From an uncultured Alphaproteobacteria bacterium (GTDB lineage Bacteria > Pseudomonadota > Alphaproteobacteria > CAAHEQ01 > UBA3637): a stretch of DNA of 64,000 bases. Both the position numbers and the translations under genes were made by a program. The notes beneath the pieces are model-generated. The model was not told where the DNA came from. It made no database searches and worked only from the letters and a program-made list of their open reading frames with translations. Of this stretch, positions 3,794-55,626 are shown in pieces. Every line of letters begins with the position of its first letter. Position 1 is the first letter of the stretch. The DNA lies in assembly GCA_944392125.1 (NCBI GenBank), contig CALXVP010000002.1:27207-91206 (forward strand), written 5' to 3'.

Positions 3794-4240
3794 TTATTTT
3801 TTGTTGTTCATTAAGTATTGTTGCCATTCTTGATTGTTAATCAAAAGGGCGCGTGCAATCGGCGCACGATTTTGTTCGTATGCAAATATGATTTCAAATT
3901 GCACATTGTTTTGATCAGCCGAAAGCAATAGCTGATTCAACCTATCGGCTTCTTGCTGAGGAATATAATAGCGGTGCGGAATGTTATCAAAGTCTCGTCT
4001 GGGGCAAATACCGCCGATAAACTGGTTGCAATCTGTTTTTCCCCAATCAATCTGATATTGAATATAATGACCCGAAAGTAAACTGCGCGGATCATATCCT
4101 TGAATGGCAATCACAACATCCCTTGCCGAACGCATCTGAAAAGCCAAAAACAGTGTATAAATCAAAATGGCCGAAAAAGGCAAAACCCACCCCAGCCAAC
4201 GCAACCACTTACCGTTTTGCCCGTTTTTATTTTGAATCAT
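3794..4240 (-). CDS. GDYXXLXY-domain membrane-anchored protein
   Basis: N-terminal TM helix, then YDPRSLLSGHYIQYQIDW and RYYIPQQEA, which align with the GDYXXLXY family pattern (DPRDLFRGDYVxLxY ... YFVPEG). It overlaps the upstream membrane gene by 14 nt. Confidence 0.55.
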   Translation of the reverse strand: MIQNKNGQNGKWLRWLGWVLPFSAILIYTLFLAFQMRSARDVVIAIQGYDPRSLLSGHYIQYQIDWGKTDCNQFIGGICPRRDFDNIPHRYYIPQQEADRLNQLLLSADQNNVQFEIIFAYEQNRAPIARALLINNQEWQQYLMNNKK

Positions 4241-5768
4241 GCAACCGATCTCCTTTCATCAAGCGCACGAGCGCCGGATACCCTTTCACATAAACCCAAA
4301 TCCCGAGCAGTAAAACGGCGCCGATGGCAATCAGGCCGATACCTGTTGACATCAAAGATAAAATGTATCCCATATAAGCAATGCCCACGCGCACAATCAT
4401 TCCGAGCAAGCATACATTAAATAGCCACGTATTGCCCCGATGAACGGCAAAAATACTTACCCCGAGTAAGCAAATCAATGTGAAAATCATTCCGAAAATC
4501 GTTTCGCTAACAAACAAATAACCGAACGAAACCAAAAATGCCCAAAAGAAAACTTGCAGAGCCGTCCGCCGACTGCCTTGTGGCACAAGCCAACCGATGA
4601 AGCCCAATCCGGCAATCGCACCGCCCGCCAATCCAATAAAAGAAGGCGTTAAAGAGACAACCGTTTTTGCAAAACCGTTTTCCGTATACATCGCATCCAC
4701 AAAAATAACCGTTAATATGCCGATAACGATGCCGATAATCTGCAACGTGCTCGTAAAGCCCGTATGGCTCCCCACATATCGGCGTGCCAAGCCGACTAAT
4801 CCGAGCAACACAACGCCGGTCAAAGCAAAACACGCCGTCGGCATTAAATAATCGTAAAAATCGGATAAGGCGGTTAAAAACCAATTTGCTTCCATCAACG
4901 AACCGCAAAAAGCAATCCACCAAAAAACACTCACAATGGCTTGCTTGCGCTTCCATAAGACAATCGGCAAAACGGCTACCGTCCAAAGTGGCACAAATGC
5001 GTTTCCGATACCTAGTAGAGCGCCCAGTCCGTAAGAGGCCATCCAAATCGGTAAACTCACGCGTAATTGAGAACTCAATATATACGGGATTGCCAAAATA
5101 CTGCCCGCCAATAAGGCGTTCCAAAATGAATCCGAAAGATGATAAATTTGCCCGATTAAACCCAGTCCGGCAAAAATCCACCCGATATTGCCCCAAATCA
5201 AACATTCGCGCACCCATTTTTTCTGCTTCGCGTCTGCCACAAACAAACTGCCGATAAGAGCCACAAAGCCGACAAAATAGCCTCCGAGTTTAACCATATC
5301 GGGAATACCCTGCCAATTTGCGGAAATCACGGCAATCACGCCGAGAATAATACACAAAACGGCAAACAAGCTCATGCGTTTTGCCCAAATCTTCGTTTTT
5401 TCCGCAAACAAAGAGCCCTGTTCCGCATGAGTCGCTACGTCGGCGGACGTTATTTTTTTTACCGCTTGAGGCACGCCTGCCAATCGGTATAACTGTTGCC
5501 GTTGTTTGGCATCAATTAAGCCGTTCATAGCCCATTCATCAATACGTTTAACCGATTCAAAACGCCGAATTAACGTTGCTTGTTGCTCGGATAAAGAGCC
5601 TTCTTTTTCGGCGCGGGCAATCAGTGAAGCCGGTTGCTTTTGATTCGAGTGCATCCGTTCGGAACGGGATTGATAGACTTCTTTGTTTCGTGTGCGTTTA
5701 TCCGATGATTTTCCGGAAAACGCAAAATCATCCTTATATTCTTTTTTATTCTTCGCAACAGTTACCAT
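4227..5768 (-). CDS. Polytopic membrane protein, DUF4401/DUF2157-like
   Basis: About 130 aa of soluble N-terminus followed by about 10 or more hydrophobic helices. Its position between a DUF2157-like gene and a GDYXXLXY gene matches a known conserved trio. Confidence 0.5.
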   Translation of the reverse strand: MVTVAKNKKEYKDDFAFSGKSSDKRTRNKEVYQSRSERMHSNQKQPASLIARAEKEGSLSEQQATLIRRFESVKRIDEWAMNGLIDAKQRQQLYRLAGVPQAVKKITSADVATHAEQGSLFAEKTKIWAKRMSLFAVLCIILGVIAVISANWQGIPDMVKLGGYFVGFVALIGSLFVADAKQKKWVRECLIWGNIGWIFAGLGLIGQIYHLSDSFWNALLAGSILAIPYILSSQLRVSLPIWMASYGLGALLGIGNAFVPLWTVAVLPIVLWKRKQAIVSVFWWIAFCGSLMEANWFLTALSDFYDYLMPTACFALTGVVLLGLVGLARRYVGSHTGFTSTLQIIGIVIGILTVIFVDAMYTENGFAKTVVSLTPSFIGLAGGAIAGLGFIGWLVPQGSRRTALQVFFWAFLVSFGYLFVSETIFGMIFTLICLLGVSIFAVHRGNTWLFNVCLLGMIVRVGIAYMGYILSLMSTGIGLIAIGAVLLLGIWVYVKGYPALVRLMKGDRLHDSK

Positions 5769-5818
5769 GCGGTTTTCCTCTTCAAATAATATTGTTATAC
5801 CCGCATCTTATGCAAAAA

Positions 5819-6784
5819 TCAACGATTTTTTTCAAGAATCCCCTTTTTACGTTGACTTCCCTGTTTAAACATTTTGCGCTTGCGCCACAAAACAAATCCG
5901 CCCGCACCCAACAAAACAACCGCACCCGCGCTTAAAAAAACGATACCGGCATGCACGGGATTATACGCCATCTGAAAATAAAAAATCAAAATACGCACCA
6001 CAATAAAGAATCCCGTTACGTTAAACAAAACCGAACGCCGTGCCGATATGGCGAACAAAAGCAACAACGCCAAAAAGCCGAGCGACATAAAAAAGCCCTG
6101 CACCGGTTCCCGCATGGCAATATCGCCCAAAAAGACGATCGGGAAATACAAAATAATGGACCAGTGATATAAACTCACGGCAAATTTATCCGTAAAAAAA
6201 TGCGATAAATAAATAAAGCATAGCAATACGCCCCCGATAAGGCCCGTTGCAAACAGCGGACTTTGCTCAAAAAACAAGAGCAATAATTCAATTTTCATAT
6301 ATCCGATGATACCGCCGAAAAAGAGCGGTATCCATAAAAAAGCCAACCACTTGCGTTTACTCACGGCCACAATACCGAACGATAATATCAACCACAAAAA
6401 CAAACCGGAAGCCCCTTGCATCGGCAAATTAAAAATCTGCGCCACCAGTCCGATACCGCCACCAATCATAAAAAAAGCCACAAACAAGGCTATTTCCGCC
6501 AATTTCGTTTTTTGCTTTTGAACGGCAAAAAAAGCCAGCGTTAAACTGCCGACCAAACAAATGCCCGCTACCAACAATTTAACACTTTCCGGAATCACTG
6601 CCCACGAAGCCTCAATAAAAGCCGTTATTCCGAGAAGCCCGAGCAAAATACCGAGCCAGACAATACTTGATAACAGAAACGGCTTATGCGCAATGTTTTC
6701 CTGCGCCAGAATTTGCTCGCGTTGTGCCATAGAGATAATGTTTTGCTTTACCCAGTTTTGCGATTTTTTTTCAAGACTCATCAT
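5819..6784 (-). CDS. Polytopic membrane protein, DUF2157-like
   Basis: Short soluble N-terminus (WVKQNIISMAQREQILAQE) followed by about 8-9 TM helices. It is the first gene of the three-gene membrane operon. Confidence 0.5.
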   Translation of the reverse strand: MMSLEKKSQNWVKQNIISMAQREQILAQENIAHKPFLLSSIVWLGILLGLLGITAFIEASWAVIPESVKLLVAGICLVGSLTLAFFAVQKQKTKLAEIALFVAFFMIGGGIGLVAQIFNLPMQGASGLFLWLILSFGIVAVSKRKWLAFLWIPLFFGGIIGYMKIELLLLFFEQSPLFATGLIGGVLLCFIYLSHFFTDKFAVSLYHWSIILYFPIVFLGDIAMREPVQGFFMSLGFLALLLLFAISARRSVLFNVTGFFIVVRILIFYFQMAYNPVHAGIVFLSAGAVVLLGAGGFVLWRKRKMFKQGSQRKKGILEKNR

Positions 6785-22088: not shown

Positions 22089-22205
22089 CGCAATTTCCGA
22101 ATATAAAAAAATTCAATTTATGCAATTTTTTTGCAAATTTTGTTTGCAATTCGGCTTTTTTTTCCGTAAAATGAAAGCACTTTATGGATGAATGAAAGGA
22201 AAAAA

Positions 22206-24011
22206 ATGCAATTACGTTCTTTTTTGCTGACAGCCGTTTGTTGCCTATGGGCAATCAATACCAACGCTCAAACGGCGCAAATTTTGCCCTCGGATTTTAA
22301 TGCACAAAACGTATTGGCGGAAGCGCTCGGAAAAGGAAGTATTCTTGTTTGCAAAGCGGGGCAATGCGTTCAAACAAATCATAACATGAGCCGTGAATAT
22401 CTGTTCAATCAGCTTAAAGAATTGGTGGATGCCAATATCGGGCAAGATATTGAAATTTGCGAAGGGGATTCGGCCCGTCGGCAATGTATTCAAAACGGAA
22501 TTTCTTTATTGGTTGCTTCTCCTGCCATTCAAACGATTGTGCAAATACCGAAAGCGCGGTTAATTGATGCGCGCCCCGTTGAAGATACGCCGGGAATTGA
22601 TTTAATTATTGATTACAAGATGAAAGCGGGCGGAACGTTTCCGCATTGCCAAACAACCTTATCTCGGCTCGGCACAAGGCATGCCGGTTCATCGGAGTTA
22701 ATGTCGCCACACTTTAATTGTGCATTAACCGAAACGGGAAAAACATTATTCAGTCTTGCTTATCACATTGACTACATTGATTTTGACCAAGGCATTATCG
22801 GCGCACAATACACGATTGCCGCCGATAACGTATTAACGGGAGCCAATGCGGGCTATATCTTAATGGATTTTGCCAAAGGCGTTAAAATGGAACCGGGTGA
22901 AACGTATCCGTATCCCGAACAGCTGGCCGCTTTGGAAAGCGGTGAAGTGGCAACGTTTGATACCCCGATGGATATGGAAGCCGTCTGGTTAAAACCAACC
23001 CCGTTCTTAAATTTATTAACGCCGACTTTTGCCCCGAATGATTGCTATACGTTTGAGGGCGGTTGTTCGGCGCAAATGTTAAACAATCCGGCAAGAGCCG
23101 TGCAACCGACAAATACATCTGCCGGTGTCCGTTCGGGCAATCGCAATGTTCCGCCGGCGCAGGCAAAGTTAGATGCACTCACACCGCCGAACGTGGCCTC
23201 CACAACCGGTTTAATTCAACAGACGATGACGGTTACACCCGTTTCGCCTGCCGAACGTCAAACAATTACCACGAAAACAAAGGTCGCCGAAAACGGGAAA
23301 ATTATTTACAGCGAAGAAGCCACACGGCATTATGTGCGCGAAACGGCAAACGGTCCGCTGGTGGAAGATAAATCCAAAGCCGTTGTGCAATCAAGCGGTC
23401 AAATGCCGAATGAAGAAACGGTTAAAAATGCCGAAAAAGAATATGCGGCCATGAAGCAATTTGAAGCGCAAACGCAACAAGCAACAACCTCCGATAAGAC
23501 GGCTATTGCCAAGTCGACACAAACGGCTACCGCAGGAGTGAACACCGCACGCACGGCCACATCCGCCGATGCAATACAACCAACATCACCGCGCCCGCTC
23601 GGGCAACCGATTACCCAAACAAATGTGGAAGTTATCGTGCCGAACGGCGTGGTGTTAACGGAAGCGGAACGGGCATATATTGAACAACTGGCGACATCTG
23701 CGGAAGGACAATCCATTCAACTGCCAACCGGCAATACTGCGCAACAAAACGTGATGCCTGGGAACGGGCAAGCACCCGTTATGGCACAACCGCAAAATGC
23801 GTTGCCCCAAAATGCGCAAATGCAACCCATACCCGCACAAGGCGCAATGCAACCGATGGGACAACCGATGATACCCGTTATCGGCCCGAACGGCTCTGCC
23901 GTTGCCGGTCAGCCGATTACGATAACGCCTGATGCGACTCCCGTTAAAGAAGAACAAACGTCTTGGTGGGATAACATTACGAATCATGTTAATAAATGGC
24001 TTTACTTTTAA
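22206..24011 (+). CDS. Secreted protein with a Q/P/A/T-rich C-terminal half, hypothetical
   Basis: Signal peptide MQLRSFLLTAVCCLWAINTNAQT, a Cys-containing globular N-terminal half, then low-complexity sequence (QPQNALPQNAQMQPIPAQGAMQPMGQP). Confidence 0.6.
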   Translation: MQLRSFLLTAVCCLWAINTNAQTAQILPSDFNAQNVLAEALGKGSILVCKAGQCVQTNHNMSREYLFNQLKELVDANIGQDIEICEGDSARRQCIQNGISLLVASPAIQTIVQIPKARLIDARPVEDTPGIDLIIDYKMKAGGTFPHCQTTLSRLGTRHAGSSELMSPHFNCALTETGKTLFSLAYHIDYIDFDQGIIGAQYTIAADNVLTGANAGYILMDFAKGVKMEPGETYPYPEQLAALESGEVATFDTPMDMEAVWLKPTPFLNLLTPTFAPNDCYTFEGGCSAQMLNNPARAVQPTNTSAGVRSGNRNVPPAQAKLDALTPPNVASTTGLIQQTMTVTPVSPAERQTITTKTKVAENGKIIYSEEATRHYVRETANGPLVEDKSKAVVQSSGQMPNEETVKNAEKEYAAMKQFEAQTQQATTSDKTAIAKSTQTATAGVNTARTATSADAIQPTSPRPLGQPITQTNVEVIVPNGVVLTEAERAYIEQLATSAEGQSIQLPTGNTAQQNVMPGNGQAPVMAQPQNALPQNAQMQPIPAQGAMQPMGQPMIPVIGPNGSAVAGQPITITPDATPVKEEQTSWWDNITNHVNKWLYF

Positions 24012-41850: not shown

Positions 41851-42378
41851 ATGTTTTACAAAAATCTATTCTTTTTAACATTGTTTTTTATATCGGCCTG
41901 CGGATTTTCGCCGATGCACCGATTATCGGATAATCGCCAAACAAGCAGTTTAACCGAACAAATCGGTATTGCAGGAATCCCGAATTATGAAGGGTGGCTT
42001 TTGCGACAAAACTTGCAAGATAATTTGAACCCCGAAAAAACGGGTGGCAGTAAGAAATACCTGTTAGTTGTTAACTTGCAAGCCCCCACCTATACGGACC
42101 AAAGCATTCAGGGCGATAATTTTGCCAGCCGTGAAACCGTTCGTATTTCCGCTTCATACACATTAAAAGAAACGTCAACGGGGAAAATCATCTTGAAAGA
42201 TTCTACCTCGGCAACCGGCGCTTATAACATCGTAAAAGAGCCGTATGCAACCAATGTGGCGCGAAACAGACTGCGAGAAGATTTAGTTAAAATTATCGGC
42301 GATAATATTTCTTTACGCGTTATATCATTTATGAAGTCAAACGAGGAAAAGCGTGAAAGCGAAACCGTATCAAATTGA
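41851..42378 (+). CDS. lptE: LPS-assembly lipoprotein LptE
   Basis: Lipobox FISACGFSPMH, about 170 aa in length, and the position immediately upstream of holA is the conserved lptE-holA arrangement. Confidence 0.65.
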   Translation: MFYKNLFFLTLFFISACGFSPMHRLSDNRQTSSLTEQIGIAGIPNYEGWLLRQNLQDNLNPEKTGGSKKYLLVVNLQAPTYTDQSIQGDNFASRETVRISASYTLKETSTGKIILKDSTSATGAYNIVKEPYATNVARNRLREDLVKIIGDNISLRVISFMKSNEEKRESETVSN

Positions 42379-43378
42379 AGCGTTAAAGGCTCAAATTCAA
42401 AAGCAATATAAAGGCGCTTTGATTTACGGACCCGATTTCAGCGTCACGGAAGATTGTGCAGAGCAAATCATTCCGTTTATTATTCCAAAAAAAGATGATT
42501 TTTCTTTCATTAAAATTACAAAAAGTCAGCTAAAAGAAACTCCGACTCTGTTATTAGATGAAGGCAACACGGTTTCGCTGTTGGGTGGGCGTAAATTAAT
42601 CTGGCTGAAAGATGCCGATAACACATTGGCACAAGCCGTTGAAGACTATATCACGTATATCAAATCAGATACATTTTTGTTAATCACGGCCGATAATCTG
42701 CTTAAATCGTCGGCATTACGCGTGTTTTGCGAAAACAATGAGTCTGTTTTAACCGTTGCCTGCTATGCCGATGAAGAAAAAGACGTTCGGTTTTTAATAC
42801 AAAATTATCTGAAAACAAAAGGGTATACCGTTTCCGAAAACGCTTTATCATTGTTGCAAAGTCGCTTAAACGAGAATCGGCAAGCTACGAAAAACGAATT
42901 AGAAAAACTGATAACCTATCTGGGCGAGCGAAAACACGTAGAAGAAAAAGATGTGGTTGAAGTTATATCCGATACATCTTCGGCAACGGCCGACATGCTT
43001 GTATTTGCCGTTGCGAACGGGCAACATAAAGAAGCGGATAATGCGCTCCGTATTTTATTTTTGAACGGGGAAAATCCCGTTAGCATTACACGCATTTTAT
43101 CGTTACACTTTAATAAATTATTGATTGGGGCAGATTTAGTTTCAAAGCGCGTATCGGGGGAAGAAATTTGCAAAAAGCTATTACGCGCCAATCAATTTCG
43201 CTTAAAAGAGCAGTTATTGCAACAAGTTTATAAATGGAAAAAAGAATATCTTTGTAAAACATTACAACTGCTTTTAGAAGCGGAGCAACAAACAAAAACA
43301 ACGGGTATGCCGGCAGAACTGATTGTAGAACGTGCCGTAACGATGATAACGGGGCTCGGCAAGCGCCTCAATCATTAA
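42353..43378 (+). CDS. holA: DNA polymerase III subunit delta
   Basis: About 340 aa; N-terminal ...YGPD... with a helical C-terminal domain. It overlaps lptE by 26 nt. Confidence 0.8.
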   Translation: MKAKPYQIEALKAQIQKQYKGALIYGPDFSVTEDCAEQIIPFIIPKKDDFSFIKITKSQLKETPTLLLDEGNTVSLLGGRKLIWLKDADNTLAQAVEDYITYIKSDTFLLITADNLLKSSALRVFCENNESVLTVACYADEEKDVRFLIQNYLKTKGYTVSENALSLLQSRLNENRQATKNELEKLITYLGERKHVEEKDVVEVISDTSSATADMLVFAVANGQHKEADNALRILFLNGENPVSITRILSLHFNKLLIGADLVSKRVSGEEICKKLLRANQFRLKEQLLQQVYKWKKEYLCKTLQLLLEAEQQTKTTGMPAELIVERAVTMITGLGKRLNH

Positions 43379-43485: not shown

Positions 43486-46455
43486 TTAGCTTTTTTCGCA
43501 ATAAAAGCGCCCGTCTTTTTCAACAACAGAGCGTTTTGCACCGGAGCAATTCAAGCACAAATTCCGCGCATCGTTGCTATCGGGGATTTCCGTTGATCCG
43601 CTTGTGCAACTGCTTAATCCGCCGTTGATGTTAATAAAATAGCCGTCTCTCGGTTCAGAAGAGCAATACCATTTTGTCTGATCACCGTTTACTTTGCTAT
43701 ATACAATACGGTCATAATTGCGACACATACTTTTTGATGTTTCATCACTTCCGATTTCAAAATTACCCCACGAACTGCCTCCGCATTGACCGTTCACATT
43801 TTGAAGTTGTCCGAAGCAATCATTCACGCAATAGGCTTTGGTAGCACCGCTGGTATCTTCCGCCGTCATAACGCGTTTATTATTGCATTCCGTGCAAGAA
43901 CTCCGCGAGGTAGTAATATTATCAATTTCGGTTCTTGATGATGTTGTGCAACTGATACATTGATTATTTACATTCAAGAATGTGGAGCCATCGGTACAGA
44001 GTCCGTAAGCGCAATAACCATTATCATTGCGACGATTGCCACAACTTTTGCATTGTGCCGCGCTTAAAATTTGATATGAGGCTGGATCATCACATCGTTG
44101 ACAATTTCCATAATAGTCTCTGAATAGAAAACCATCTCCGTCGGAATAATTTTTATGCTCTCCATTTTCCACACTATTACAGACACCGCTTACACCTGGA
44201 TTAATGTAGGCACACCAACTGCCTAATAGTATCCTATTTCCACACGCTTCACATTCTTTTTGCAAATTCTCACCAATACCATACACTGACCTCACATCAG
44301 CGGTATTACATAAGGCACAACCAGCAGTATTAGTATGAAATTGATTCTCGGGACACTTTAAGGGTCCACAAAAAGACTCAGATGGGACAATACGCTCATC
44401 AGGTGAGGGACATTGGGTACATAAAGTTTTTAATTCTGGACTTCTTAAAATTTGATATGTTGATGTGTCGCTACAACTCCAACATCTTCCTAAAATATCC
44501 TGAAATTCTTGTGAATCACATTTTTTTAAGCAGACATATTTAGTCCCTTTTGTATCCTGAACAGAAACAGACCACCTTGTTTGTATTCCATTTTTAGAGC
44601 ATGCAGAACAACCTGATATTTCATCAGAAGCAACATCAACAACTCCATCTGTTTCGCAATCAACACATTCACCCGTTGCGTCCATAAACTGATTTTCATT
44701 ACAAATATTGTTTTTCTTAGGAATACAATATCCGTTTGCTACTTGTCTGCCACATAACTCGCATAGATTTTCAAGAATTGGATTCGTTCCTCCTGCTAAT
44801 GACATGATACTCGTTGTAGTCCCACTATTGTTACAACTGAAACATTCCCCCTTATAATTTTGCCATTTGCGTTTGCACTTTTCATTACTTGGATCAGTTA
44901 AACAAATTATGCTTTCTTCACTGTTTTCATCAGGCTGTTCACATTTTGGATAACAATAATTATCAATCACATTTAATCCACACGATTGGCAAAGTTGATT
45001 CATTTTTTGTTGGGTTATTATACCGGAAGAATACTGTAATAACATGTCTTTACGTTCCGAAATGTTGCATGGATAACACTGTGGATAATTTTCGTTTCCT
45101 TTTCCTAAAAACTCTTTCCCTTCTTCACAATTTAAGATAGGGGAACAGTAACTGTTAAAACGTTCTCTATCTCCACATGCAACACATTGATTAACAGATT
45201 CCACACCTCCGTCAATCTTAAACACTTCCGTATTCGGAGTGCCGTCGGGATTGACACACGGATGACATTGCCCGTCTTGCCCTTGCACGCTGATTCCTTT
45301 TGTGCAGGTGTAGGAACAATACGTTGTGCTTCCTGCCGTCTCTAACTTGCGCGCCGTTCCCTCGTTCGCACAGTTCGCGCATAACTCCGCACCCGTTGCT
45401 TTATCTGCTCCGAACACCTCATCTCCGTTAATTATCACATTAGACGGATGTGAACACGGAATACACGCCCCGTTCCGACTCCGAAACTCGTTTTCCGCAC
45501 ACGCTTCGGGGATTTCTTCGCATTCATTCGTCGCTTCGTTGCAGATTTGATTGATGGGGCAATCATCGTTTACTTCGCATCGCACACATCGCCCCTGCGT
45601 GGCACTGCATATCGGCGTCGCGTCAGGACACGTGGATTCACATTTATAATCGCTTCCGCATCGTTCGCACGTCCCCGTGCAATCCCCGTCATCTAAACAA
45701 TACCGCACAGGTCGCCCGTTTTCATCTACGGCTTCTCCGCCCCCGAGTTCCGCGCCGTATTGACTTAAACTCGTTGTAAACACAATGGACACATTCTCGG
45801 CATCTTCTTCCCCATATTGGCATAATTCTTCGGCGTTTGTGCCGTCAAACAGTTGTTTTTCATCTTCTCCCGTCGGCACCCAAATCAATAACGGTCCCTC
45901 TAAATTTGTATTTAACACATTTAAACACACCCGACTCGGCACATCGTCTACCTGCACATCAAACATATCCGTTGATCGCAAATAAACCCCTATCGGAAAT
46001 CCCGTTGACGTATATTCTGCCCATTCATTCAGCCTATCTTCATTTTCGGGCAAACCGTCCAGCTGATATTTATGCCATGTATCCCGATTGCGCAGATTCA
46101 CTTCATAAATAATATCGTTGGCTCTATATTTATCCATCGCATACCGATAGCCTGCAATTCCCGCAACCGATAACACACCAATCACCGCCAACACGCCCAG
46201 CATTTCTACCATACTCCGCCCGTATTCGGCCAAACGTGCGCTTCTTAATCCACGCAATCCACACAATCCGCGACCTAATCCGCCTTGCGTTTGCGAATCT
46301 AGTAAAAATCCTGCTTTTTGATTATTTTTCAAGCGCATGAGGCGTGTTTGATTCGCTGATTTTATCTCTCGTTTTGCGCGATTCGCCTCAAATTCCCCGT
46401 TTTTTACTTTTTTTGCATAAAAAGAAGCCAAGTTAACTATTTGTTTTATATTCAT
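43486..46455 (-). CDS. Giant prepilin-type N-terminus protein with a cysteine-rich tandem repeat array (989 aa)
   Basis: RBS GGGAGAAAGAAA. Residues 79-103 read G|RSMVEMLGVLAVIGVLSVAGIAGY, with Glu at +5. About 79 Cys by hand count, mostly arranged in about ten C..CxxC..CxxC..C modules. Confidence 0.8.
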   Translation of the reverse strand: MNIKQIVNLASFYAKKVKNGEFEANRAKREIKSANQTRLMRLKNNQKAGFLLDSQTQGGLGRGLCGLRGLRSARLAEYGRSMVEMLGVLAVIGVLSVAGIAGYRYAMDKYRANDIIYEVNLRNRDTWHKYQLDGLPENEDRLNEWAEYTSTGFPIGVYLRSTDMFDVQVDDVPSRVCLNVLNTNLEGPLLIWVPTGEDEKQLFDGTNAEELCQYGEEDAENVSIVFTTSLSQYGAELGGGEAVDENGRPVRYCLDDGDCTGTCERCGSDYKCESTCPDATPICSATQGRCVRCEVNDDCPINQICNEATNECEEIPEACAENEFRSRNGACIPCSHPSNVIINGDEVFGADKATGAELCANCANEGTARKLETAGSTTYCSYTCTKGISVQGQDGQCHPCVNPDGTPNTEVFKIDGGVESVNQCVACGDRERFNSYCSPILNCEEGKEFLGKGNENYPQCYPCNISERKDMLLQYSSGIITQQKMNQLCQSCGLNVIDNYCYPKCEQPDENSEESIICLTDPSNEKCKRKWQNYKGECFSCNNSGTTTSIMSLAGGTNPILENLCELCGRQVANGYCIPKKNNICNENQFMDATGECVDCETDGVVDVASDEISGCSACSKNGIQTRWSVSVQDTKGTKYVCLKKCDSQEFQDILGRCWSCSDTSTYQILRSPELKTLCTQCPSPDERIVPSESFCGPLKCPENQFHTNTAGCALCNTADVRSVYGIGENLQKECEACGNRILLGSWCAYINPGVSGVCNSVENGEHKNYSDGDGFLFRDYYGNCQRCDDPASYQILSAAQCKSCGNRRNDNGYCAYGLCTDGSTFLNVNNQCISCTTSSRTEIDNITTSRSSCTECNNKRVMTAEDTSGATKAYCVNDCFGQLQNVNGQCGGSSWGNFEIGSDETSKSMCRNYDRIVYSKVNGDQTKWYCSSEPRDGYFININGGLSSCTSGSTEIPDSNDARNLCLNCSGAKRSVVEKDGRFYCEKS

Positions 46456-46685
46456 TTTCTTTCTCCCTATTCTTCATAAACGTCCGTTTATGTAGAGAGG
46501 AAACGAAACAAAAATGCCCCACAAAAATCAATCTTAAAAAATCATTATTTTACAAGTAGATATCCATATTTAAATTTTCACTTGATTATTTTAAAAATAC
46601 CCTTATAATCCTCTTTATACTATATCATCTAGACGGACCTTTTTGTAGAGTCCGCTTTTTTTATGCCGATGATACTCCGTTTATT

Positions 46686-46720
46686 AAAAAACCCGCCACT
46701 TACTTGTGACGGGCTTTTTT
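46686..46720. terminator. Intrinsic terminator downstream of thrS
   Basis: CCCGCCAC-ttactt-GTGACGGG (one mismatch), flanked by an A-run and a T-run. On the minus strand the stem is followed by TTTTTT. Confidence 0.55.
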
Positions 46721-46733
46721 AATTTTATACACG

Positions 46734-48659
46734 TTAATCTTCATATTCCACACTCGGGAAACGCGTGTCCAGTTTGAATTGCTTAAACGCTTCTTCAAAC
46801 GGCATCACTTCTTGCTTATCCGACCCTAAACGACGAATTGTTACCGTGCCATCAGCCGCTTCTTTCTTCCCGACAACTAAAATAACCGGTATCTTCTTCA
46901 ATGAGTGTTCACGCACTTTATAACTGATTTTTTCATTGCGTAAATCCTCTTCCGCCCGAATACCGGCTACATATAACCGATGTTGGATTTGATGCGCATA
47001 CGCATTTTGCTCCTCCGTAACAGGAACAACCATCACTTGAACCGGCGCCAACCAGAACGGTAAGTGTCCGGCACAGTTTTCCAAAAAGACGCCGACAAAC
47101 CGCTCCAATGACCCGAATAATGCTCTATGCAACATAATCGGACGATGCTTTTCTCCATCTTCCCCGATGTATGAAATATCAAAGCGTTCCGGTAAATTTA
47201 AATCGGCTTGCAATGTTCCGAGTTGCCATTCGCGCCCGATTGCATCATAAAATTTAAAGTCTAGTTTCGGCCCGTAGAATGCACCGTCGCCCGGATTGAG
47301 TTCGTATGTATATCCCATATCCGTTAACGCATCTGCCAACGAATTTTCCAATAAATCCCAAATATCATCCGTTCCGATTCTCTCATCCGGACGCGTGGAG
47401 AGTTTTATCTTCATTTCCGTTAAGCCGAAATCTTTATAAATGCTTACCATTAACTTCACAACATTTTGCAATTCTTGTTTTAATTGCTCCGGTGTGCAGA
47501 AAATATGCGCATCATCTTGCGTAAACGCCCGCACCCGCAATAAGCCGTGCAACGCGCCCGAGGCTTCATACCGATGCACACGCCCGAACTCACCGATATA
47601 CCGCGGTAAATCGCGATAGCTGGTAATGCCTTGCTTGTAAATAAGAACCGAACCCGGGCAATTCATCGGCTTGATTGCAAATTCCTTCTCTTCAATCGTT
47701 GTGGTAAACATATTATCTTTATACCAATTCCAGTGCCCCGATGTTTCCCACAAGACTCTGTTCATAATTTGCGGTGTATTCACTTCCTCATACCCGACAT
47801 CTTTTTGACGCCGACGCATATATGCAATCAATGTTTGGAAGAATGTCCAACCCCGCGGATGCCAAAATACATCGCCCGGCGCATATTCCTCAAAATGGAA
47901 TAAATCCATTTCTTTGCCGAGTTTCCGATGGTCGCGCTTTTCGGCTTCTTCCAACATCGTAAAGTAGGCTTTTAAATCTTTTTCGCTGAAAAATGCCGTG
48001 CCGTAAATCCGTTGCAAAGATTCGCGATTGCTGTCTCCCCGCCAATAGGACGCGGCAACTTTCGTTAACTTAAACGCTTTTCCGAGTTTGCCCGTTGAAG
48101 TTAAATGCGGTCCGCGACATAATTCCACATAATCATCTTGCGTATATAAAGAAACTTCCTGCACATCTTCCGGCATATCGTGCAAAATTTCCAACTTATA
48201 TTTTTCGCCCCGTTCGGTAAAAATACGCTCGGCTTCCGCCCGCGAAACCACCGACCGCACAATCGGATAATCCGCATCCACAATCTTTGCCATTTCCGCT
48301 TCAATTTGCGGTATATCGGCTTCTTTTACGATAATTCCGTAAAAGTCATAGTAAAAACCGTTTTCAATCGCCGGCCCGATTGTGACTTGCGCCTCGGGAT
48401 ATAACCGCGTAACGGCATGGGCTAAAATATGGGCCGCCGTGTGGCGCAAAATGCTCAATGCTTCGGCATCTTTTTTCGTGATAATTGAAATCGTTGAGTC
48501 GGTTGTGATGGGTGTTGTCACATCTGTCAACGTATCGTTTACCCGAACTGCGACGGCATTTTTTGCCAGTCCTTCGCTGATTTTTTGTGCAATTTCCAAC
48601 CCATTAATTCCTGAATCGACATTCATCTTCGATCCATCCGGCAACTTAATTTCAATCAT
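46734..48659 (-). CDS. thrS: Threonine--tRNA ligase
   Basis: TGS domain (MIEIKLPDGS), editing-domain HTAAHILAHAV, class II core and an anticodon-binding domain; 641 aa. Confidence 0.95.
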   Translation of the reverse strand: MIEIKLPDGSKMNVDSGINGLEIAQKISEGLAKNAVAVRVNDTLTDVTTPITTDSTISIITKKDAEALSILRHTAAHILAHAVTRLYPEAQVTIGPAIENGFYYDFYGIIVKEADIPQIEAEMAKIVDADYPIVRSVVSRAEAERIFTERGEKYKLEILHDMPEDVQEVSLYTQDDYVELCRGPHLTSTGKLGKAFKLTKVAASYWRGDSNRESLQRIYGTAFFSEKDLKAYFTMLEEAEKRDHRKLGKEMDLFHFEEYAPGDVFWHPRGWTFFQTLIAYMRRRQKDVGYEEVNTPQIMNRVLWETSGHWNWYKDNMFTTTIEEKEFAIKPMNCPGSVLIYKQGITSYRDLPRYIGEFGRVHRYEASGALHGLLRVRAFTQDDAHIFCTPEQLKQELQNVVKLMVSIYKDFGLTEMKIKLSTRPDERIGTDDIWDLLENSLADALTDMGYTYELNPGDGAFYGPKLDFKFYDAIGREWQLGTLQADLNLPERFDISYIGEDGEKHRPIMLHRALFGSLERFVGVFLENCAGHLPFWLAPVQVMVVPVTEEQNAYAHQIQHRLYVAGIRAEEDLRNEKISYKVREHSLKKIPVILVVGKKEAADGTVTIRRLGSDKQEVMPFEEAFKQFKLDTRFPSVEYED

Positions 48660-48892
48660 TTTTATTTTCCTTCTTTTCTATTAAACAAATAAACCTGTTT
48701 CGGCCATGATAAACACCCGTTTCACGGCGAAACAGAGGTCATTATACGCCGTTTTCAAACACTTGTCAAAAACATTTTAAAAAAAAGAGAAAAAACACAC
48801 CGCGAAATACCGTCAAACAATCCGTATCCGCAACGCGAATCAAAAATAACATTCCCAAAAACAATCAAAACGGTTGTTGTTATCCCCAAAAT

Positions 48893-49687
48893 TCAGTATT
48901 CCGTTCTGCGTTGCCGTTTCAATAATGATTGATGAAATTTATCGCTGTTCGTATAACTTTTGGATACGGCGGGTTCTTTCTTTTGCTGTTCCTTGGCGAT
49001 TATTTTTTGTTGCTTCTTCTGATAATGTTTCCATTCGTTTTCTTTTTGACGGATGATTTCCTGTGTCCAATTTTCCGGACGGTCCTCCGGCTTTAACGGC
49101 CGTTTACGCACCGGTTGTTGCTTTTGCCGACTTTCGGCGCGCCGTTTGGCGTGATACATTGCTTTTTGCACCCGAATTTTGATTTCCTTTTGTATCCGTT
49201 CGCATTCTTGGTCCGAAAAAAATAAACTTAAATCCTTCTTTGTGAAAAATTTTTGTTGATCCGGCACGTGTAAATAGGCATCGGGGTATGCTTCTTCATC
49301 CCACTCATTGCGGATCATATTTAAATGTTCCTTATGTAAGGCAAGGTGTAAATCCTTGTGCATAACGCATAAATTTTCTTCCGCATTACTGCCACCCAAA
49401 GCCAACGGAACTAAATGGTGCACATCATACTCCTTGGGCAAAATGCCGTTTCGTTTTGCGCGCTCAACTTCTTCCGGCGTCATCACCCCGTCAAACAATC
49501 CTTTCCGTGCACATTTTTGAACAAAGGAATTTCCTTTTTCGGATGAACCGTATTTCTTCGTAAACATGCGACGAAAATAATTCGTTTCGTCTTCCGAACG
49601 ATTGAATATTTTAACAAATCGCCCCGTATATTTTCTGGTTTGCTCATAAAAATAAAGACTGCCGTTTTTTTCTTGAAAAATAATCAT
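48893..49687 (-). CDS. HNH endonuclease-domain protein with a K/E/Q-rich tail
   Basis: EYDVHHLVPLALGGSNAEENLCVMHKDLHLALH is an HNH (His-Asn-His) motif. The C-terminal approximately 110 aa are highly charged. Confidence 0.7.
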   Translation of the reverse strand: MIIFQEKNGSLYFYEQTRKYTGRFVKIFNRSEDETNYFRRMFTKKYGSSEKGNSFVQKCARKGLFDGVMTPEEVERAKRNGILPKEYDVHHLVPLALGGSNAEENLCVMHKDLHLALHKEHLNMIRNEWDEEAYPDAYLHVPDQQKFFTKKDLSLFFSDQECERIQKEIKIRVQKAMYHAKRRAESRQKQQPVRKRPLKPEDRPENWTQEIIRQKENEWKHYQKKQQKIIAKEQQKKEPAVSKSYTNSDKFHQSLLKRQRRTEY

Positions 49688-49743
49688 CCCGACCTCACAT
49701 CAATCGTTGAATCAGGATACCACATTTTGAGCCAAAAAACAAC

Positions 49744-49941
49744 TTATTTAAGCACTTTTTCAATATCGTTTTCTTCTATTTTCGTTATCTCGTTGTGATA
49801 ATGTGTTACCACTTTATCCAACTTATGAAAAAATCCCGATTCATACACTTTAACAACGCCCGCAATCGCTGTCCACGAAACAATAATCGTAAAAAAAGCC
49901 GCCAACATATCCAAAATATCTTTTAACAATTTCATTTTCAT
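49744..49941 (-). CDS. Small single-TM protein (about 65 aa), hypothetical
   Basis: Starts at the internal ATG preceded by AAGAGGGG. Sequence MKMKLLKDILDMLAAFFTIIVSWTAIAGVV... contains one TM helix. Confidence 0.35.
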   Translation of the reverse strand: MKMKLLKDILDMLAAFFTIIVSWTAIAGVVKVYESGFFHKLDKVVTHYHNEITKIEENDIEKVLK

Positions 49942-50093
49942 CTGCACCCCTCTTTCTGTATTAAGAAAAATGAGGTGTGTATTTATATTTATCAAGAACC
50001 GACTTTTGGTCATTTTACCCGATTATTATTGATATTGGATCACTTTCTTGCGCCGGAATTTTTTTCTTCTGCCATTTGACATTTCAGATATAT

Positions 50094-50126
50094 AAAAAAA
50101 CCCGATGAACATCATCGGGTTTTCTT
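50094..50126. terminator. Intrinsic terminator downstream of gatB
   Basis: Perfect 8-bp stem CCCGATGA-aca-TCATCGGG, flanked by AAAAAAA and TTTTCTTT. On the minus strand the stem is followed by TTTTTTT. Confidence 0.75.
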
Positions 50127-50158
50127 TGTATCTTACCCCAAAGCAGGATAATATTTTT

Positions 50159-51613
50159 TTATTCAGCCAACTTCTTATCTAACAGTTGGTTGGCCAACGC
50201 CGGATTGACTTTGCCTTGCGAAGCTTTCATAATTTGCCCCACAAACCAGCCTTTCAGTTTCTCTTTACCGGCTTTAATTTCCGCAACCTTATCCGGATTT
50301 TGAGCCAAAATATCGGCAATCAACGCTTCAATCGCGCCTGTATCCGATACTTGCTTCAATCCTTTTTCTTCAATAATCACATCCGGTGCTTTGCCCGTTT
50401 CAATCATTAATTCAAACACTTCTTTTGCAATTTTGCCGGAAATTGTGCCGTCGCCGATGAAGCCGACCAAAGCCCCCAGATTTTCGGCCGAAATCGGACT
50501 TTCCGTAATCGTGAGATTTGCTTTGTTCAAATAGCCGAACAAATCACCCATAATCCAGTTGGCCACTTTCTTGGCATCGTGCCCTTGAATGGCGGTTTCA
50601 AAATAGTGCGCCGTTTCCGTATCAACCGTTAAAACGGACGCATCATAAGGCGTTAATCCCAATGTTTCAATATACCGTTTTTTCTTGGCTTCCGGTAATT
50701 CCGGTAAGTTCCGACGGATATTTTCAATATATTCATCCGTTAAAATAACGGGCAATAAATCCGGATCCGGGAAATAGCGATAATCGTTTGCATTTTCTTT
50801 GGACCGCATTAACCGCGTTTCCAAATTAACCGAGTCAAACAATCTGGTTTCTTGATCAATCATACCGCCCGATTCATAAATTTCAATTTGTCTGTTCGCT
50901 TCAATTTCAATCGCCTGCATCACAAATCGAACCGAGTTCACGTTTTTCACTTCCACCCGATTGCGCAACGCCGTCTCTCCAACCTTGCGCACCGAGACAT
51001 TCACATCGCACCGCATGGAACCTTCATCCATATTCCCGTCGCACGTGCCGAGTGCCCGCACGATGGCGCGCAGTTGACGCAAATACTCGCCCGCTTCCGC
51101 CGGTGAATGCATGTCAGGCTTGGAAACAATTTCCATTAACCCCACACCGCACCGATTTAAGTCAATAAAAGAACTGTGCGGACTCATATCGTGAATGGAT
51201 TTGCCGGCATCTTGTTCCAAATGCAACCGCTCCACGCCGATTTTGCGTGTGCCGTCATCCGTTGTTACCTCAATATACCCTTCTCCCACAATCGGGTGAT
51301 ATAATTGACTAATCTGATACCCTTGCGGTAAATCGGCGTAAAAATAATTTTTACGGTCAAAACGCGAATACTTGTTAATTTTAGCATTCAACCCTAATCC
51401 CGTTTTAACGCATTGTTCAATACATTTTTCGTTCACAACCGGCAACATGCCCGGAAATGCCGCATCCACAAATGAAACGTGTGTATTTTGCTCGGCACCG
51501 AATGTCGCCGAAGACGGTGAAAAAACCTTTGATTGTGAAATAATCTGACAGTGAACCTCTAATCCGATAACCAATTCCCAGTCGGCTGTTTTTCCTTTAA
51601 TTGTATACGTCAT
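50159..51613 (-). CDS. gatB: Asp/Glu-tRNA(Asn/Gln) amidotransferase subunit B
   Basis: [12 protein letters not shown] and ...DQDAGKSIH-like [11 protein letters not shown], with a YqeY-like C-terminal domain. Confidence 0.95.
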
Positions 51614-51616
51614 AAC

Positions 51617-53101
51617 TTATCCTTTCACATAGTGAGGCTTTTTATCAAATTCAGCAGCCGTTTCAAGCGCTTGCGCCACTTGGAACACCGTGTTTTCATC
51701 AAAGTGTTTACCGATAACCTGCAACCCGACGGGCAACCCGTTTTCCGCTAATCCGACCGGCAAGGCAAGTGACGGCACACCCGCCAGCGAACTCGGTGTT
51801 GTAAACACATCGCCCAAATACGTATCAACGGGGCTCATATTTTTCATGGCTTCGTAAGAAAGAGCTGTTGTCGGCGCTGCGGGAGCCAAAATGGCATCTA
51901 CCGATTTGAATGCTTCCACAAAATCATTGTAAATTAACCGACGCACTTTTTGTGCCCGCGTGTAGTAAGCATCATAGAAGCCGGCCGACAAAACAAATGT
52001 GCCGAGCAAAATCCGACGGATTACTTCGGGACCGAAACCGTCTGTCCGCGTATTTTCATACATCTCGTCCAGCGTTTTCCCGTCAACACGTGTGGTATAG
52101 CGCACCCCGTCATACCGCGACAAGTTGGAAGAGGCCTCCGCACACGCCACAATATAGTAAACGGGCAACGCATATTTTGTATACGGCATGGAAATTTCAA
52201 TGATTTCCGCACCGGCATCTTTTAAATACGCAATTCCTTTATCCCAAACGGCAGCCACTTGCGGATTGAGATCTTTGGAACGATATTCGCGCGGAATACC
52301 GATTTTCTTGCCTTTAATATCCCCTGTCAGCGCTTGCGTATAATCGGGGACGGGCAAATCGGCAACCGTTGAATCCTTGGCATCAAATCCCGCCATTTCA
52401 CGCAATAACAACGCGCAATCTTTCACCGAACGCGCCATCGGACCGGCCTGGTCCAATGAAGAGGCAAACGCCACAATACCGTATCGTGAGCAACGTCCGT
52501 ATGTCGGCTTAATTCCCGTAATACCGCAAAATGAGGCCGGTTGACGAATGGAACCGCCCGTATCGGAACCGGTTGCGCCCATGCACAAGCCGGCAGCCAC
52601 TGCGGCCGCCGAACCGCCCGACGAACCGCCCGGCACCAAATTATAAACGCCTGTTTCATCGGCCCACGGGTTTTTCGTTACGCCGAAATAACTTGTCATG
52701 GTTGACCCGCCCATGGCGAATTGGTCGGTATTCACTTTTCCCAACATCACCGTGCCGGCGTCTTTCAGTTGTTGCGTAACGGTTGATTCATACGGCGGAA
52801 CAAAATGTGATAAAATTTTAGAAGCTGCCGTTGTGCGCACGCCTTTTGTGCAATATAAATCTTTATTGGCAATCGGAATACCCTCTAACCGGCCGATTGT
52901 TGCCCCGGAAGCCCGTTTTTTATCTGATTCTTCCGCTGTTTTTAAGGCCAGTTCGGGTGTTTCGGTAATATACGTATTTAAAAAACGCGCCCGCTCCATT
53001 TCAGCCAAATGCGCTTTGGTTAATTCAACCGACGAGATTTCTTTTTTATTTAATAAATCCAATGCGTCGGAAATTGTTAAATCCGTTAATTTTGAAACCA
53101 T
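51617..53101 (-). CDS. gatA: Glu-tRNA(Gln) amidotransferase subunit A
   Basis: Amidase signature [14 protein letters not shown]...[12 protein letters not shown]. Confidence 0.95.
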
Positions 53102-53112
53102 GTTTAACTCCT

Positions 53113-53400
53113 TTATTCCACCATTTTGGGAACAACATAAAATCCGTGTGCCGATTCAGGGGCATTTGCCATCAATTCGGCCTGTAATCCGCCAACCGTT
53201 ACCACATCTTCTCGGATAGCGCTCTCGCGCGGTGAAACGGAGACCAACGGTTCAACTTGTGAAACGTCCACTTCCTTTAATTCTTCAACCCAATCCAGAA
53301 TACCGTTAATATCCTGCATAAACTTGGCTTCCTGTTCTTCGGGAAACCGTAACCGCGCCAAATGCGCAATATTCTTAATTGTTTTTTCGTTAAAACTCAT
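53113..53400 (-). CDS. gatC: Asp/Glu-tRNA(Asn/Gln) amidotransferase subunit C
   Basis: 95 aa; [12 protein letters not shown]...[12 protein letters not shown]; first gene of gatCAB. Confidence 0.9.
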
Positions 53401-53768
53401 CGCATTTCTCTTTAAATTAAAAAAATAGGCAGGAAAACACCTTCTGTTTTCCTTTTGAACTCGTTTTAAAGACTGCCTTTTTTTTCCTTGAAAGTCAAGT
53501 AAAATTTTTTATTGTCCCGACTTGTATTTGTCCGTAGCGGTAGAGTGTGTTATGTATTCACAACAAAGACCCGATTGTTTTTGCGGATCTCTCGCCCAAA
53601 AGCAAGTGCCGGTCGAGGACGAATGACAGACTGCCGATTGCGAAAACGAAAGCAAAAGAGTGAGTATATTTTCATAAAAAGAGATGTTTCAAGGAAGGGA
53701 ATAATGCAGGGAATAACAGCTTTTTTCAAAAAAAATCAAATAAGTTATCAAATAATGAAAAAAAGTGC

Positions 53769-53797
53769 TTGACAAGCGATTTTTTTTCAAGCATAAT
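53769..53797 (+). promoter_or_regulatory. Sigma70-type promoter for the tRNA-Tyr/tRNA-Gly/tuf unit
   Basis: TTGACA (53769-53774), a 17-nt spacer, then CATAAT (53792-53797), about 40 nt upstream of tRNA-Tyr. Confidence 0.6.
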
Positions 53798-53838
53798 GGG
53801 GCTCTCTTGTAAACAGTAGCAAGAGTGTCTGTTGGGCC

Positions 53839-53924
53839 GGAAGGGTGGCCGAGTGGTTAATGGCAGCAGACTGTAAATCTGCCGACTTATGTCTACGAAA
53901 GTTCGAATCTTTCCCCTTCCACCA
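53839..53924 (+). tRNA. tRNA-Tyr (anticodon GTA)
   Basis: GGAAGGGTGGCCGAGTGG...CAGACTGTAAATCTG...long variable arm...GTTCGAATCTTTCCCCTTCCACCA. Acceptor stem GGAAGGG/CCCTTCC. Confidence 0.9.
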
Positions 53925-53940
53925 TAAGACCCGATTATAA

Positions 53941-54014
<74 letters not shown>

Positions 54015-54073
54015 ATTCAGGGAATCCCGCAAGGGATTCATTTTTTAACACTGATCAGTTAAGGAATAAAATA

Positions 54074-55317: not shown

Positions 55318-55593
55318 CTAAAAAAATGTTGATGCAGAAAAAACAGCTATCTTCGGATTAAAAATTTTTTAAGCGGAGAAAAGGTATAAAATTTTTGAAA
55401 TATCATGAGATAGAGCGTGTATAAAAAATCAACGTAAACGGCCATTTAAGAAGCCTACAAGCAAAGAAAATTGCTACACGTTCGCTAATGGGTAGAAGAT
55501 ATAAAAGGAACGTATAGCAAAAAAATCCGTTGCAAGCAAGTGGTGTTTTTTGTAGCCAACATAAAAAATCTTTTGTTGATACTCTGGTAAAAA

Positions 55594-55626
55594 AAATTCG
55601 GATTGCTTTCACAACCCGAATTTTTT
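55594..55626. terminator. Intrinsic terminator downstream of the SBP gene
   Basis: AAATTCGG-attgctttcacaac-CCGAATTT with A and T runs on either side. On the minus strand the stem is followed by a T-run. Confidence 0.55.

Follow-up and report, generated by a model that had tools for sequence, protein, structure and literature searches.

Modular type IV pilins, in which a pilin module carries a grafted functional module as in PilB and PilC of Streptococcus sanguinis, are a known route to new functions for type IV filaments. A survey that used the InterPro entry IPR012902 as its criterion found more than 1,200 of them in 264 architectures, including one 860-residue pilin with 12 copies of one motif (PMC8179133). 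In that survey, the minor pilins CofB (CFA/III of enterotoxigenic Escherichia coli) and TcpB (toxin-coregulated pilus of Vibrio cholerae) are placed at the pilus tip with a presumed role in binding, and their extra domains are given as beta-repeat and beta-sandwich (PMC8179133). The PilV tip adhesins of the thin pilus of IncI plasmid R64/TP114 are described in PMC9045228 as joining a constant type IVb N-terminus to alternative C-termini that set binding specificity. For the Kil (Tad) pilus of Myxococcus, PMC12075869 describes alternative minor-pilin 'Tips' that expose variable domains at the pilus end. We analysed a stretch of 64,000 nucleotides from an uncultured Alphaproteobacteria bacterium (contig CALXVP010000002.1; hereafter the 64-kb window) and found that one gene (43486..46455, minus strand) encodes a protein of 989 amino acids (aa) with 79 cysteines and 21 CxxC motifs. 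We consider it somewhat probable that this protein is a modular type IV pilin of the type IVb kind with a disulfide-stapled rod, variable central modules and conserved ends. The modular type IV pilin is a known kind of protein; what is new is the repeat family that it carries. A first-pass annotation of this DNA had called modular pilins rare, which the survey contradicts.

The sequence 5′ of the start codon of the open reading frame (ORF) is GGGAGAAAGAAA-ATG, which bears out the ribosome-binding site (RBS) and ATG start reported in the annotation, and its hand count of about 79 cysteines was exact. It had also raised the possibility of a chimeric ORF. More than 100 independent assemblies contain homologues at full length, among them a 93% identical copy that is present on three contigs. 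Against this copy, the ratio of nonsynonymous to synonymous substitution rates (dN/dS) was 0.08–0.13 in the mature part and 0.57 in the leader. We conclude from the full-length homologues and a mature dN/dS of ~0.1 that the ORF is a real gene and not a chimera. The description 'encoded alone' is correct for the flanks, a holA-like gene and thrS (Table 1), but it overlooks that the gene belongs to a multigene family whose members are dispersed and have a 5′ cassette in common. Since thrS is closed by its own hairpin and T-run, the 989-aa gene has a separate upstream region.

Residues 79–103 read G RSMVEMLGVLAVIGVLSVAGIAGY; as in a class III signal, Gly stands at −1 and Glu at +5, and a hydrophobic run of about 20 residues follows the presumed cleavage site. 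In an alignment of 95 homologues, G79 and E84 are invariant, R80, S81, M82 and V83 are at least 90% conserved, and RSMVE[MI]LGVLA[VI]IGVLS is conserved throughout; the N-terminal motif of the family is E-x-G-R-S-M-V-E-[MI]-L-G-V-L-A. These features support the class III prepilin-type signal proposed in the first-pass annotation. The 'unusually long leader' is indeed 78 aa when counted from the ATG, but this length is peculiar to the genus of the window. In most homologues the leader before the Gly is basic and only 8–22 aa long (e.g. MQTKFNEIG before RSMVEIL), and leaders of ~75–95 aa with a variable in-frame 9-bp (Gly-Leu-x)n repeat, located here at 46247–46269, occur in the closest relatives only. 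The leader frame is open in dozens of diverged copies and M1 is preceded by a good RBS; in-frame TTG codons near the cleavage site could be alternative starts giving short leaders. Phase variation by way of the 9-bp repeat was rejected, because the repeat is in frame and thus alters the length of the leader and does not switch the gene on or off.

We built an AlphaFold2 model of the 989-aa protein with the family alignment (predicted local distance difference test score, pLDDT, 84; predicted template modelling score, pTM, 0.67). Residues 1–83 were predicted to be disordered, followed by one 48-residue helix (83–130) and a beta-sheet with strands between residues 154 and 229. One cysteine (C65) lies in the leader and two (C177/C212), which are invariant, in the domain after the helix. 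The prediction thus has the architecture of a pilin, with a long helix on an antiparallel beta-sheet and a disulfide-bounded C-terminal region. When the model was compared with the PDB by Foldseek, type IVb pilins were the sole good matches (probability up to 1.0, target TM-score 0.45–0.51). The top match was the TcpA filament 8uhf (E = 0.012, probability 1.0), and the further matches were the CofA filament 9iuf, TcpA 3hrv and 1oqv, CofA 3s0t and PilS of Salmonella Typhi 1q5f. Type IVb pilins have a longer leader than type IVa pilins and a +1 residue other than Phe. The 989-aa protein has Arg at +1, and all its significant fold matches are type IVb pilins. Searched at sequence level, residues 80–253 had no Pfam match at E up to 10, and the globular head had no match among PDB sequences. 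In the absence of significant sequence-profile similarity to other pilins, the fold assignment of the head rests on the prediction. Taken together, the fold matches to TcpA, CofA and PilS and an N-terminus common to the pilins of the clade support the pilin reading of the first-pass annotation, in which a prepilin-type (class III) signal is followed by what is predicted to be a pilin fold.

Pilus machinery was found in related genomes. In eight loci from related metagenome-assembled genomes (MAGs), short two-Cys proteins with the GRSMVE motif share an operon with another pilin-like protein, a T2SSE and a PilT-like ATPase and a platform protein of the T2SSF family. These operon pilins are 165–207 aa long and have the same N-terminus as the 989-aa protein, which hardly differs from the major pilin of the clade over its first ~25 mature residues. 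The pilin of locus L034 passes the Pfam cut-offs of two type IVb families (Bundlin, 31.9 versus 22.3 bits; PilS, 29.3 versus 22 bits), and the operon ATPase is labelled bfpD by JGI. In addition, a Peptidase_A24 gene lies 6.4 kb from a 19-Cys GRSMVE member on the same contig (L094). The machinery of the relatives is of the generic T2SSE/T2SSF type and no secretin was found in the loci examined, which would also suit a pseudopilin-like part or substrate of a type II-secretion-like system, or a head that is cleaved so that the rod is released as a secreted factor. We regard this as improbable, because the operon combines Bundlin/PilS-family pilins with a PilT-like ATPase, as retractile type IV pili typically do, no GspC, GspD, GspL or GspM homologues were found, and the folds that matched are those of type IVb pilins.

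Three further observations concern the machinery of the clade. The A24 prepilin peptidases (L094 7342–7953; P0241–P0360) are ~228–236 aa long and match PF01478 only; no N-terminal DiS_P_DiS domain is listed for them, so they may lack the methyltransferase half, which could have to do with the Arg at +1, an unusual residue there. In L034 (2613–3170), the platform and pilin genes flank the gene for a conserved 185-aa protein, with equivalents in L020, L021, L031, L041, L050 and L054. This protein lacks the GRSMVE motif, begins with a plain transmembrane segment and shows a weak Bundlin-like match; it may be a divergent pilin-like assembly factor. In L058 (CAAFZY010000043.1, 151–6219), a TrbI/VirB10-like protein of 1,431 aa, which contains six beta-flower repeats, and a T2SSE-family ATPase resembling VirB11 are encoded convergently with, and directly beside, a GRSMVE-type protein of ~205 aa, so that a type IV secretion locus is another setting in which the pilin-like family occurs.

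C-terminal to the head, the two-Cys region and the 12-Cys knot-like stretch of the first-pass annotation were both recovered (C177/C212; 12 cysteines in residues 253–312), and its 'about ten' modules were corrected to nine canonical and two degenerate ones. The canonical module is C-x(11-25)-CxxC-x(13-26)-CxxC-x(9-22)-C and occurs at residues 319–380, 384–437, 443–501, 505–577 (with an extra Cys pair) and 585–642 (modules 1–5) and at residues 646–696, 701–748, 759–815 and 820–876 (modules 6–9). A hidden Markov model (HMM) of the repeat and a structure prediction had been proposed in the annotation. HMMs built from one module position across homologues matched the other positions in the 989-aa protein with independent E values down to 1e-11, so that the repeat is real and not a by-eye pattern. 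In the 95-sequence alignment, the Cys columns are nearly all invariant or at least 90% conserved, at a mean column identity of 21%. A three-module model reached a pLDDT of 95.8 and a pTM of 0.86; in the modelled module, the first CxxC sits on a beta-hairpin, which is followed by a strand and by a helix that bears the second CxxC, and a further hairpin closes the module.

No named family was found for this repeat, in agreement with the first-pass annotation. Neither the whole protein nor fragments of it matched Pfam or NCBIfam above threshold, and the three-module model had no significant Foldseek neighbour in the PDB or BFVD (best E = 1.7). Weak Foldseek matches to furin-like repeats recur (R-spondin, IGF1R, EGFR; probability ≤0.09). 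The commonest weak per-module Pfam matches were to TNFR_c6 (6/54 modules, best E = 2e-3) and Ephrin_rec_like (4/54, best E = 4e-4), all below the curated cut-offs. The Pfam profile of the Giardia variant-specific surface proteins (VSPs) matched one of the 54 modules (E = 0.0086) and did not match the whole protein. In an exhaustive HMM search of 1.84 billion cluster representatives, the module was found in 354 clusters only. Many of these begin with ordinary Sec signal peptides and reach up to 2,474 aa with 275 cysteines, others carry variant prepilin motifs, and the few named proteins again come from alphaproteobacterial MAGs. These findings indicate an extracytoplasmic building block that is restricted to the clade and combined with different export signals. 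We conclude that the six-Cys module is a new repeat family without a Pfam family or a solved fold.

The first-pass annotation had left the choice between disulfides and zinc to later work. Of 118 family members, 111 have an even number of cysteines in the mature protein, and so do 104 of the 114 ORFs of the N-terminus family. In homologous modules, cysteines were lost together as C1+C2 (eight cases), C3+C5 (four cases) or C1+C2+C3+C5 with C4 and C6 left (two cases); by eye, module 10 of the 989-aa protein, in which C880, C891, C911 and C931 remain, also fits a pairwise loss. This pattern suggests the disulfide pairs C1–C2, C3–C5 and C4–C6. Together with the even counts and the homologues that have ordinary Sec signal peptides, it favours disulfide-bonded over zinc-bound modules, the first half of the earlier alternative. 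In the zinc alternative, the central CxxC...CxxC would bind zinc as a treble-clef-like knuckle, the outer Cys pair would form a disulfide and the rod would be a metal-binding surface protein. The module profile matches GATA zinc fingers among PDB sequences (E = 5e-5), several zinc-ribbon Pfam models match weakly, and the hairpin bears the first CxxC and the helix the second. The habitat is presumably anoxic, as the MAGs come from gut and rumen samples, and metal binding has been proposed for the Giardia VSPs. However, the GATA and zinc-ribbon matches follow from the CxxC-x17-CxxC spacing alone and lie below every curated cut-off, and the second CxxC is modelled inside the helix (helix residues 5 and 8) and not at an N-cap. 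Moreover, modules lose C3+C5 with C2+C4 kept, or C1+C2, which fits a 1–2/3–5/4–6 connectivity and does not suit a four-Cys metal site, and the protein is predicted to be exported, with homologues that have Sec signal peptides. We therefore think a zinc site very improbable. A zinc-finger reading of the modules was rejected on the co-loss pattern, and membership of the zinc-ribbon or treble-clef (GATA-like) class does not agree with cysteines that are lost in disulfide-like pairs or with the export signals.

Among 5.8 billion proteins, we found 194 relatives, all unnamed or 'hypothetical protein' and none with a Pfam domain. They are ~570 to 1150 aa long with 42–96 cysteines, and all organism names that appear among them are of the type 'MAG ... 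Alphaproteobacteria bacterium'. The annotation had proposed a search for paralogues with the GRSMVEML N-terminus and a look at their phyletic distribution. A degenerate DNA pattern for GRSMVE[MI]LGVLA was found at no fewer than 120 loci in GTDB genomes; nearly all of those listed come from alphaproteobacterial MAGs of gut or rumen origin, 'Proteobacteria bacterium CAG:495' among them. The ORFs listed are mostly 120–230 aa long with 2–8 cysteines and range up to more than 1,600 aa. Among the matches listed, single MAGs have at least five to at least nine copies each. A metagenome scan for AEYGRSMVEML gave no match. The source is an abundant, uncultured gut lineage. At one related locus (L001, 4391–17149), three Cys-rich GRSMVE paralogues of 961, 647 and 650 mature residues (78, 44 and 70 cysteines, respectively) lie within 13 kb among housekeeping genes, which indicates a local expansion of the family.

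The 989-aa gene is one of several dispersed paralogues with a common 5′ cassette. Compared with the 93% identical copy and the paralogues, the DNA is homologous from 46666/46651 onwards. The 93% identical copy (P0001) has an unrelated neighbourhood (mfd, psd, pssA), and its homology extends exactly from 211 bp upstream of the ATG through the stop codon. The positional counterpart, beside holA-lptE-miaA, is a 73% identical homologue (P0002). Paralogues that are ~35% identical as proteins share ~560 bp at ~82% identity, covering the upstream region, the leader and the helix, and the last 500 bp of the gene match the end of paralogue P0011 at 91% identity. In all five aligned upstream regions, from orthologues and distant paralogues, the boxes GCGGACTCTACAAAAAGGTCCGTCTAGATGATATAGTATAAAG and CTCTACATAAACGGACGTTTATG are invariant, also in those whose intervening 120 bp are diverged. 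Both boxes hold CTCTACA and CGGAC/GTCCG elements, which suggests that all members of the family have a regulator or an RNA element in common. The cassette had no Rfam match, and the z-score of its RNA fold was only −1.9. An invertible promoter between the boxes was rejected, as the diverged middle in L127 is not an inverted form, and a 56-bp match at 55571–55626 turned out to be a terminator-like hairpin and not part of the cassette.

Identity to P0002–P0012 is mosaic: 90–100% in residues 79–400, 20–60% in residues 400–800 and 88–98% in residues 800–989. The proportion of synonymous differences (pS) is 0.70–0.74 in the centre, i.e. saturated, and 0.24–0.34 in the flanks; the adjoining holA is 94.6% identical. 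The mosaic pattern and the saturated synonymous sites show that the centre consists of old, divergent cassettes exchanged by recombination. Conserved ends with a replaced centre are the usual signature of exposed, selected surface structures and would make this protein a candidate for host, phage or immune interaction in a gut lineage.

Several findings weigh against a pilus subunit. As already noted in the first-pass annotation, no pilus or type II secretion machinery lies nearby: the window holds housekeeping genes only, with no Gsp, Pil or Hof homologue. No pilus genes were found in the examined neighbourhoods of five long homologues. The contigs of the PilB and A24 matches, of which the PilB matches listed are CAG:495-like at ≥84% identity, did not overlap with those of the family, and no MAG among the matches listed had both the pilus operon and a long Cys-rich member. 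The A24 peptidase and PilB/PilC-type genes were seen in other lineages of the clade only. As no peptidase or pilus ATPase was tied to the genus of the window, the processing of the 989-aa protein and its entry into a filament are inferred. At sequence level, the isolated N-terminus matched Pfam N_methyl (PF07963) in the correct register below threshold (12.7 versus 21.2 bits, E = 0.096), the whole protein matched neither N_methyl nor NCBIfam TIGR02532, and a comparison of the globular head with the major pilins of the clade by hhalign was not significant (probability 3.6%). A prepilin does not usually have Arg at +1 or a leader of 78 aa, and 5–10 or more scattered copies per genome are many for minor pilins. 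Finally, the C-terminal end, which would be the most distal part if the rod is anchored at its N-terminus, is conserved and not variable.

The main rival explanation is that the pilin-type N-terminus serves as a membrane anchor or export signal only, with the protein held in the inner membrane or released, and the rod spanning the periplasm or decorating the surface. Archaeal sugar-binding proteins that carry class III signals offer a comparable case. The lack of pilus genes near any long family member examined, the lineages that are rich in Cys-rich proteins and have no pilus operon in the sampled loci, and the many scattered copies per genome all fit this explanation. So do the plain Sec signal peptides that precede the same module, which indicate that the module needs no pilus. 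On the other hand, near-identity with the major pilin over the first ~25 mature residues goes beyond the needs of an anchor, and the full pilin fold with its D-region Cys pair appears in the model to be retained and is conserved. We therefore regard an anchor-only role as unlikely, although it is the most serious alternative to a modular pilin.

If the 989-aa protein is a modular type IVb pilin, its class III signal would insert it into the inner membrane, and an A24 prepilin peptidase would cleave it after Gly79. The alpha1 helix (RSMVE...), near-identical to that of the clade's major pilin, would then dock the head into a type IV filament. Given the bulk of the protein, it would most likely be a tip or low-abundance subunit. 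To judge from sequence statistics, the remaining 735 residues would form a stiff extracytoplasmic rod of the 12-Cys knot and 11 modules with three disulfides each. Between strains, the central modules are replaced by old, divergent cassettes through recombination and the ends are kept. The protein could act in the gut as an adhesin or recognition fibre that is exposed, variable and subject to diversifying pressure. A broader hypothesis is a surface-variation system of uncultured gut Alphaproteobacteria without a described bacterial counterpart, in which a constant cassette (promoter, leader and helix) on 5–10 or more dispersed genes presents swappable disulfide-ladder rods with central modules that recombination exchanges; we consider this quite doubtful. 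If true, it would be a functional analogue of the Giardia VSPs or of pilE/pilS variation in Neisseria, and in lineages without the pilus operon display might not need a classical pilus, which would be a new bacterial use of the class III signal.

Table 1. Parts of the 989-aa gene, its flanks and other features of the window
Feature	Position	Strand	Basis or remarks
Two degenerate C-terminal modules, residues 880–986, four Cys each	43498..43818	-	alignment of modules; conserved between alleles
Nine canonical six-Cys modules, residues 319–876	43828..45501	-	module HMMs; three-module model
Hypervariable central cassette, ~residues 401–800 (modules 2/3 to 8)	44056..45255	-	20–60% identity to P0002–P0012; synonymous sites saturated
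12-Cys knot-like linker, residues 253–312	45520..45699	-	pLDDT 65–80; no family match
Predicted globular pilin domain, residues 131–252, invariant Cys177/Cys212 pair, D-region-like disulfide	45700..46065	-	beta-sheet 154–229; Foldseek, type IVb pilins
Predicted pilin alpha1 helix, residues 80–130 (R+1 S M V E+5 M L G V L A V I G V L S...)	46066..46218	-	nearly invariant in family; modelled helix 83–130
Putative leader peptide, residues 1–79, ends at invariant Gly79 (−1)	46219..46455	-	pLDDT <50, predicted disordered; dN/dS 0.57
Conserved upstream cassette (putative promoter and 5′ untranslated region)	46456..46666	-	two invariant boxes, GCGGACTCTACAAAAAGGTCCGTCTAGATGATATAGTATAAAG and CTCTACATAAACGGACGTTTATG...GGGAGAAAGAAA; second ends in RBS
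Terminator-like hairpin and T-run after thrS	46686..46720	-	seen directly in sequence; not flagged by consensus scanner
holA-like gene	42353..43378	+	
thrS	46734..48659	-	
264-aa protein, HNH-like motif	48893..49687	-	no Pfam match
607-aa protein, signal peptide	22188..24011	+	no Pfam match
Adjacent DUF2157 membrane-protein genes (513 and 321 aa)	4227..6784	-	

Other observations were made around the gene and elsewhere in the window. Compared with the contig of P0002 (L128, 1–8000), a block that runs from thrS to tuf and contains the 264-aa gene and gatB/gatA (46734–55264) is inverted; gatC is also called in the L128 block. One breakpoint of the inversion lies just upstream of the Cys-rich gene. 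In L128, tuf is the called upstream neighbour, and a remnant of the thrS 3′ end with the terminator is retained ahead of its copy. The 264-aa protein has an HNH-like motif (HHLVPLALGG...N...H) and a lysine-rich tail, and L128 has a 264-aa gene without a Pfam match on record at the same position beside thrS. The 607-aa signal-peptide protein, whose C-terminal half is Gln/Pro/Ala-rich low-complexity sequence, is encoded upstream of two M16 peptidase genes, and the two DUF2157 genes lie between an aldolase gene and a response regulator gene.

Compared with known systems, the module resembles the TNFR, furin-like and ephrin-receptor-like domains, which are likewise six-Cys extracellular modules stacked into rods. 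The canonical connectivity of a TNFR cysteine-rich domain is 1–2, 3–5, 4–6, which equals that inferred here. The Cys spacing, the helix with the second CxxC and the bacterial source set our module apart. The Giardia VSPs are CxxC-rich, multigene, variable surface proteins of an anaerobic gut organism; they differ from the 989-aa family in anchor and kingdom, and the likeness is one of features.

Among pilins, CofB and TcpB likewise combine a type IVb head, an N-terminal helix close to that of the major pilin and extra C-terminal domains, and the predicted head of the 989-aa protein matches the folds of TcpA and CofA. However, CofB and TcpB are ~420–520 aa in size and are encoded once, inside the pilus operon, whereas the 989-aa protein belongs to a multi-copy family, is encoded away from pilus genes, has a leader of 78 aa with Arg at +1 after it, and contains Cys-rich repeats over 735 residues. 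The C-termini of PilV are switched by a shufflon. Beside the 989-aa gene we found no shufflon repeats and no recombinase, and variation takes the form of separate paralogues and allelic central cassettes and not of site-specific inversion. Kil is a Tad/Flp system with multi-protein tip complexes and without a Cys-rich repeat rod. In contrast to the modular pilins surveyed so far, the 989-aa protein carries a grafted module without a signature. It also fails the Pfam model that matches IPR012902, so that the family would have escaped the survey of PMC8179133; as neither the N-terminus nor the repeat has a database signature, signature-based surveys in general miss it. The family thus adds to the modular pilins a confidently modelled repeat without a solved relative and, with up to 11–13 modules and more than 1,600 aa in relatives, some of the largest pilin-headed proteins.

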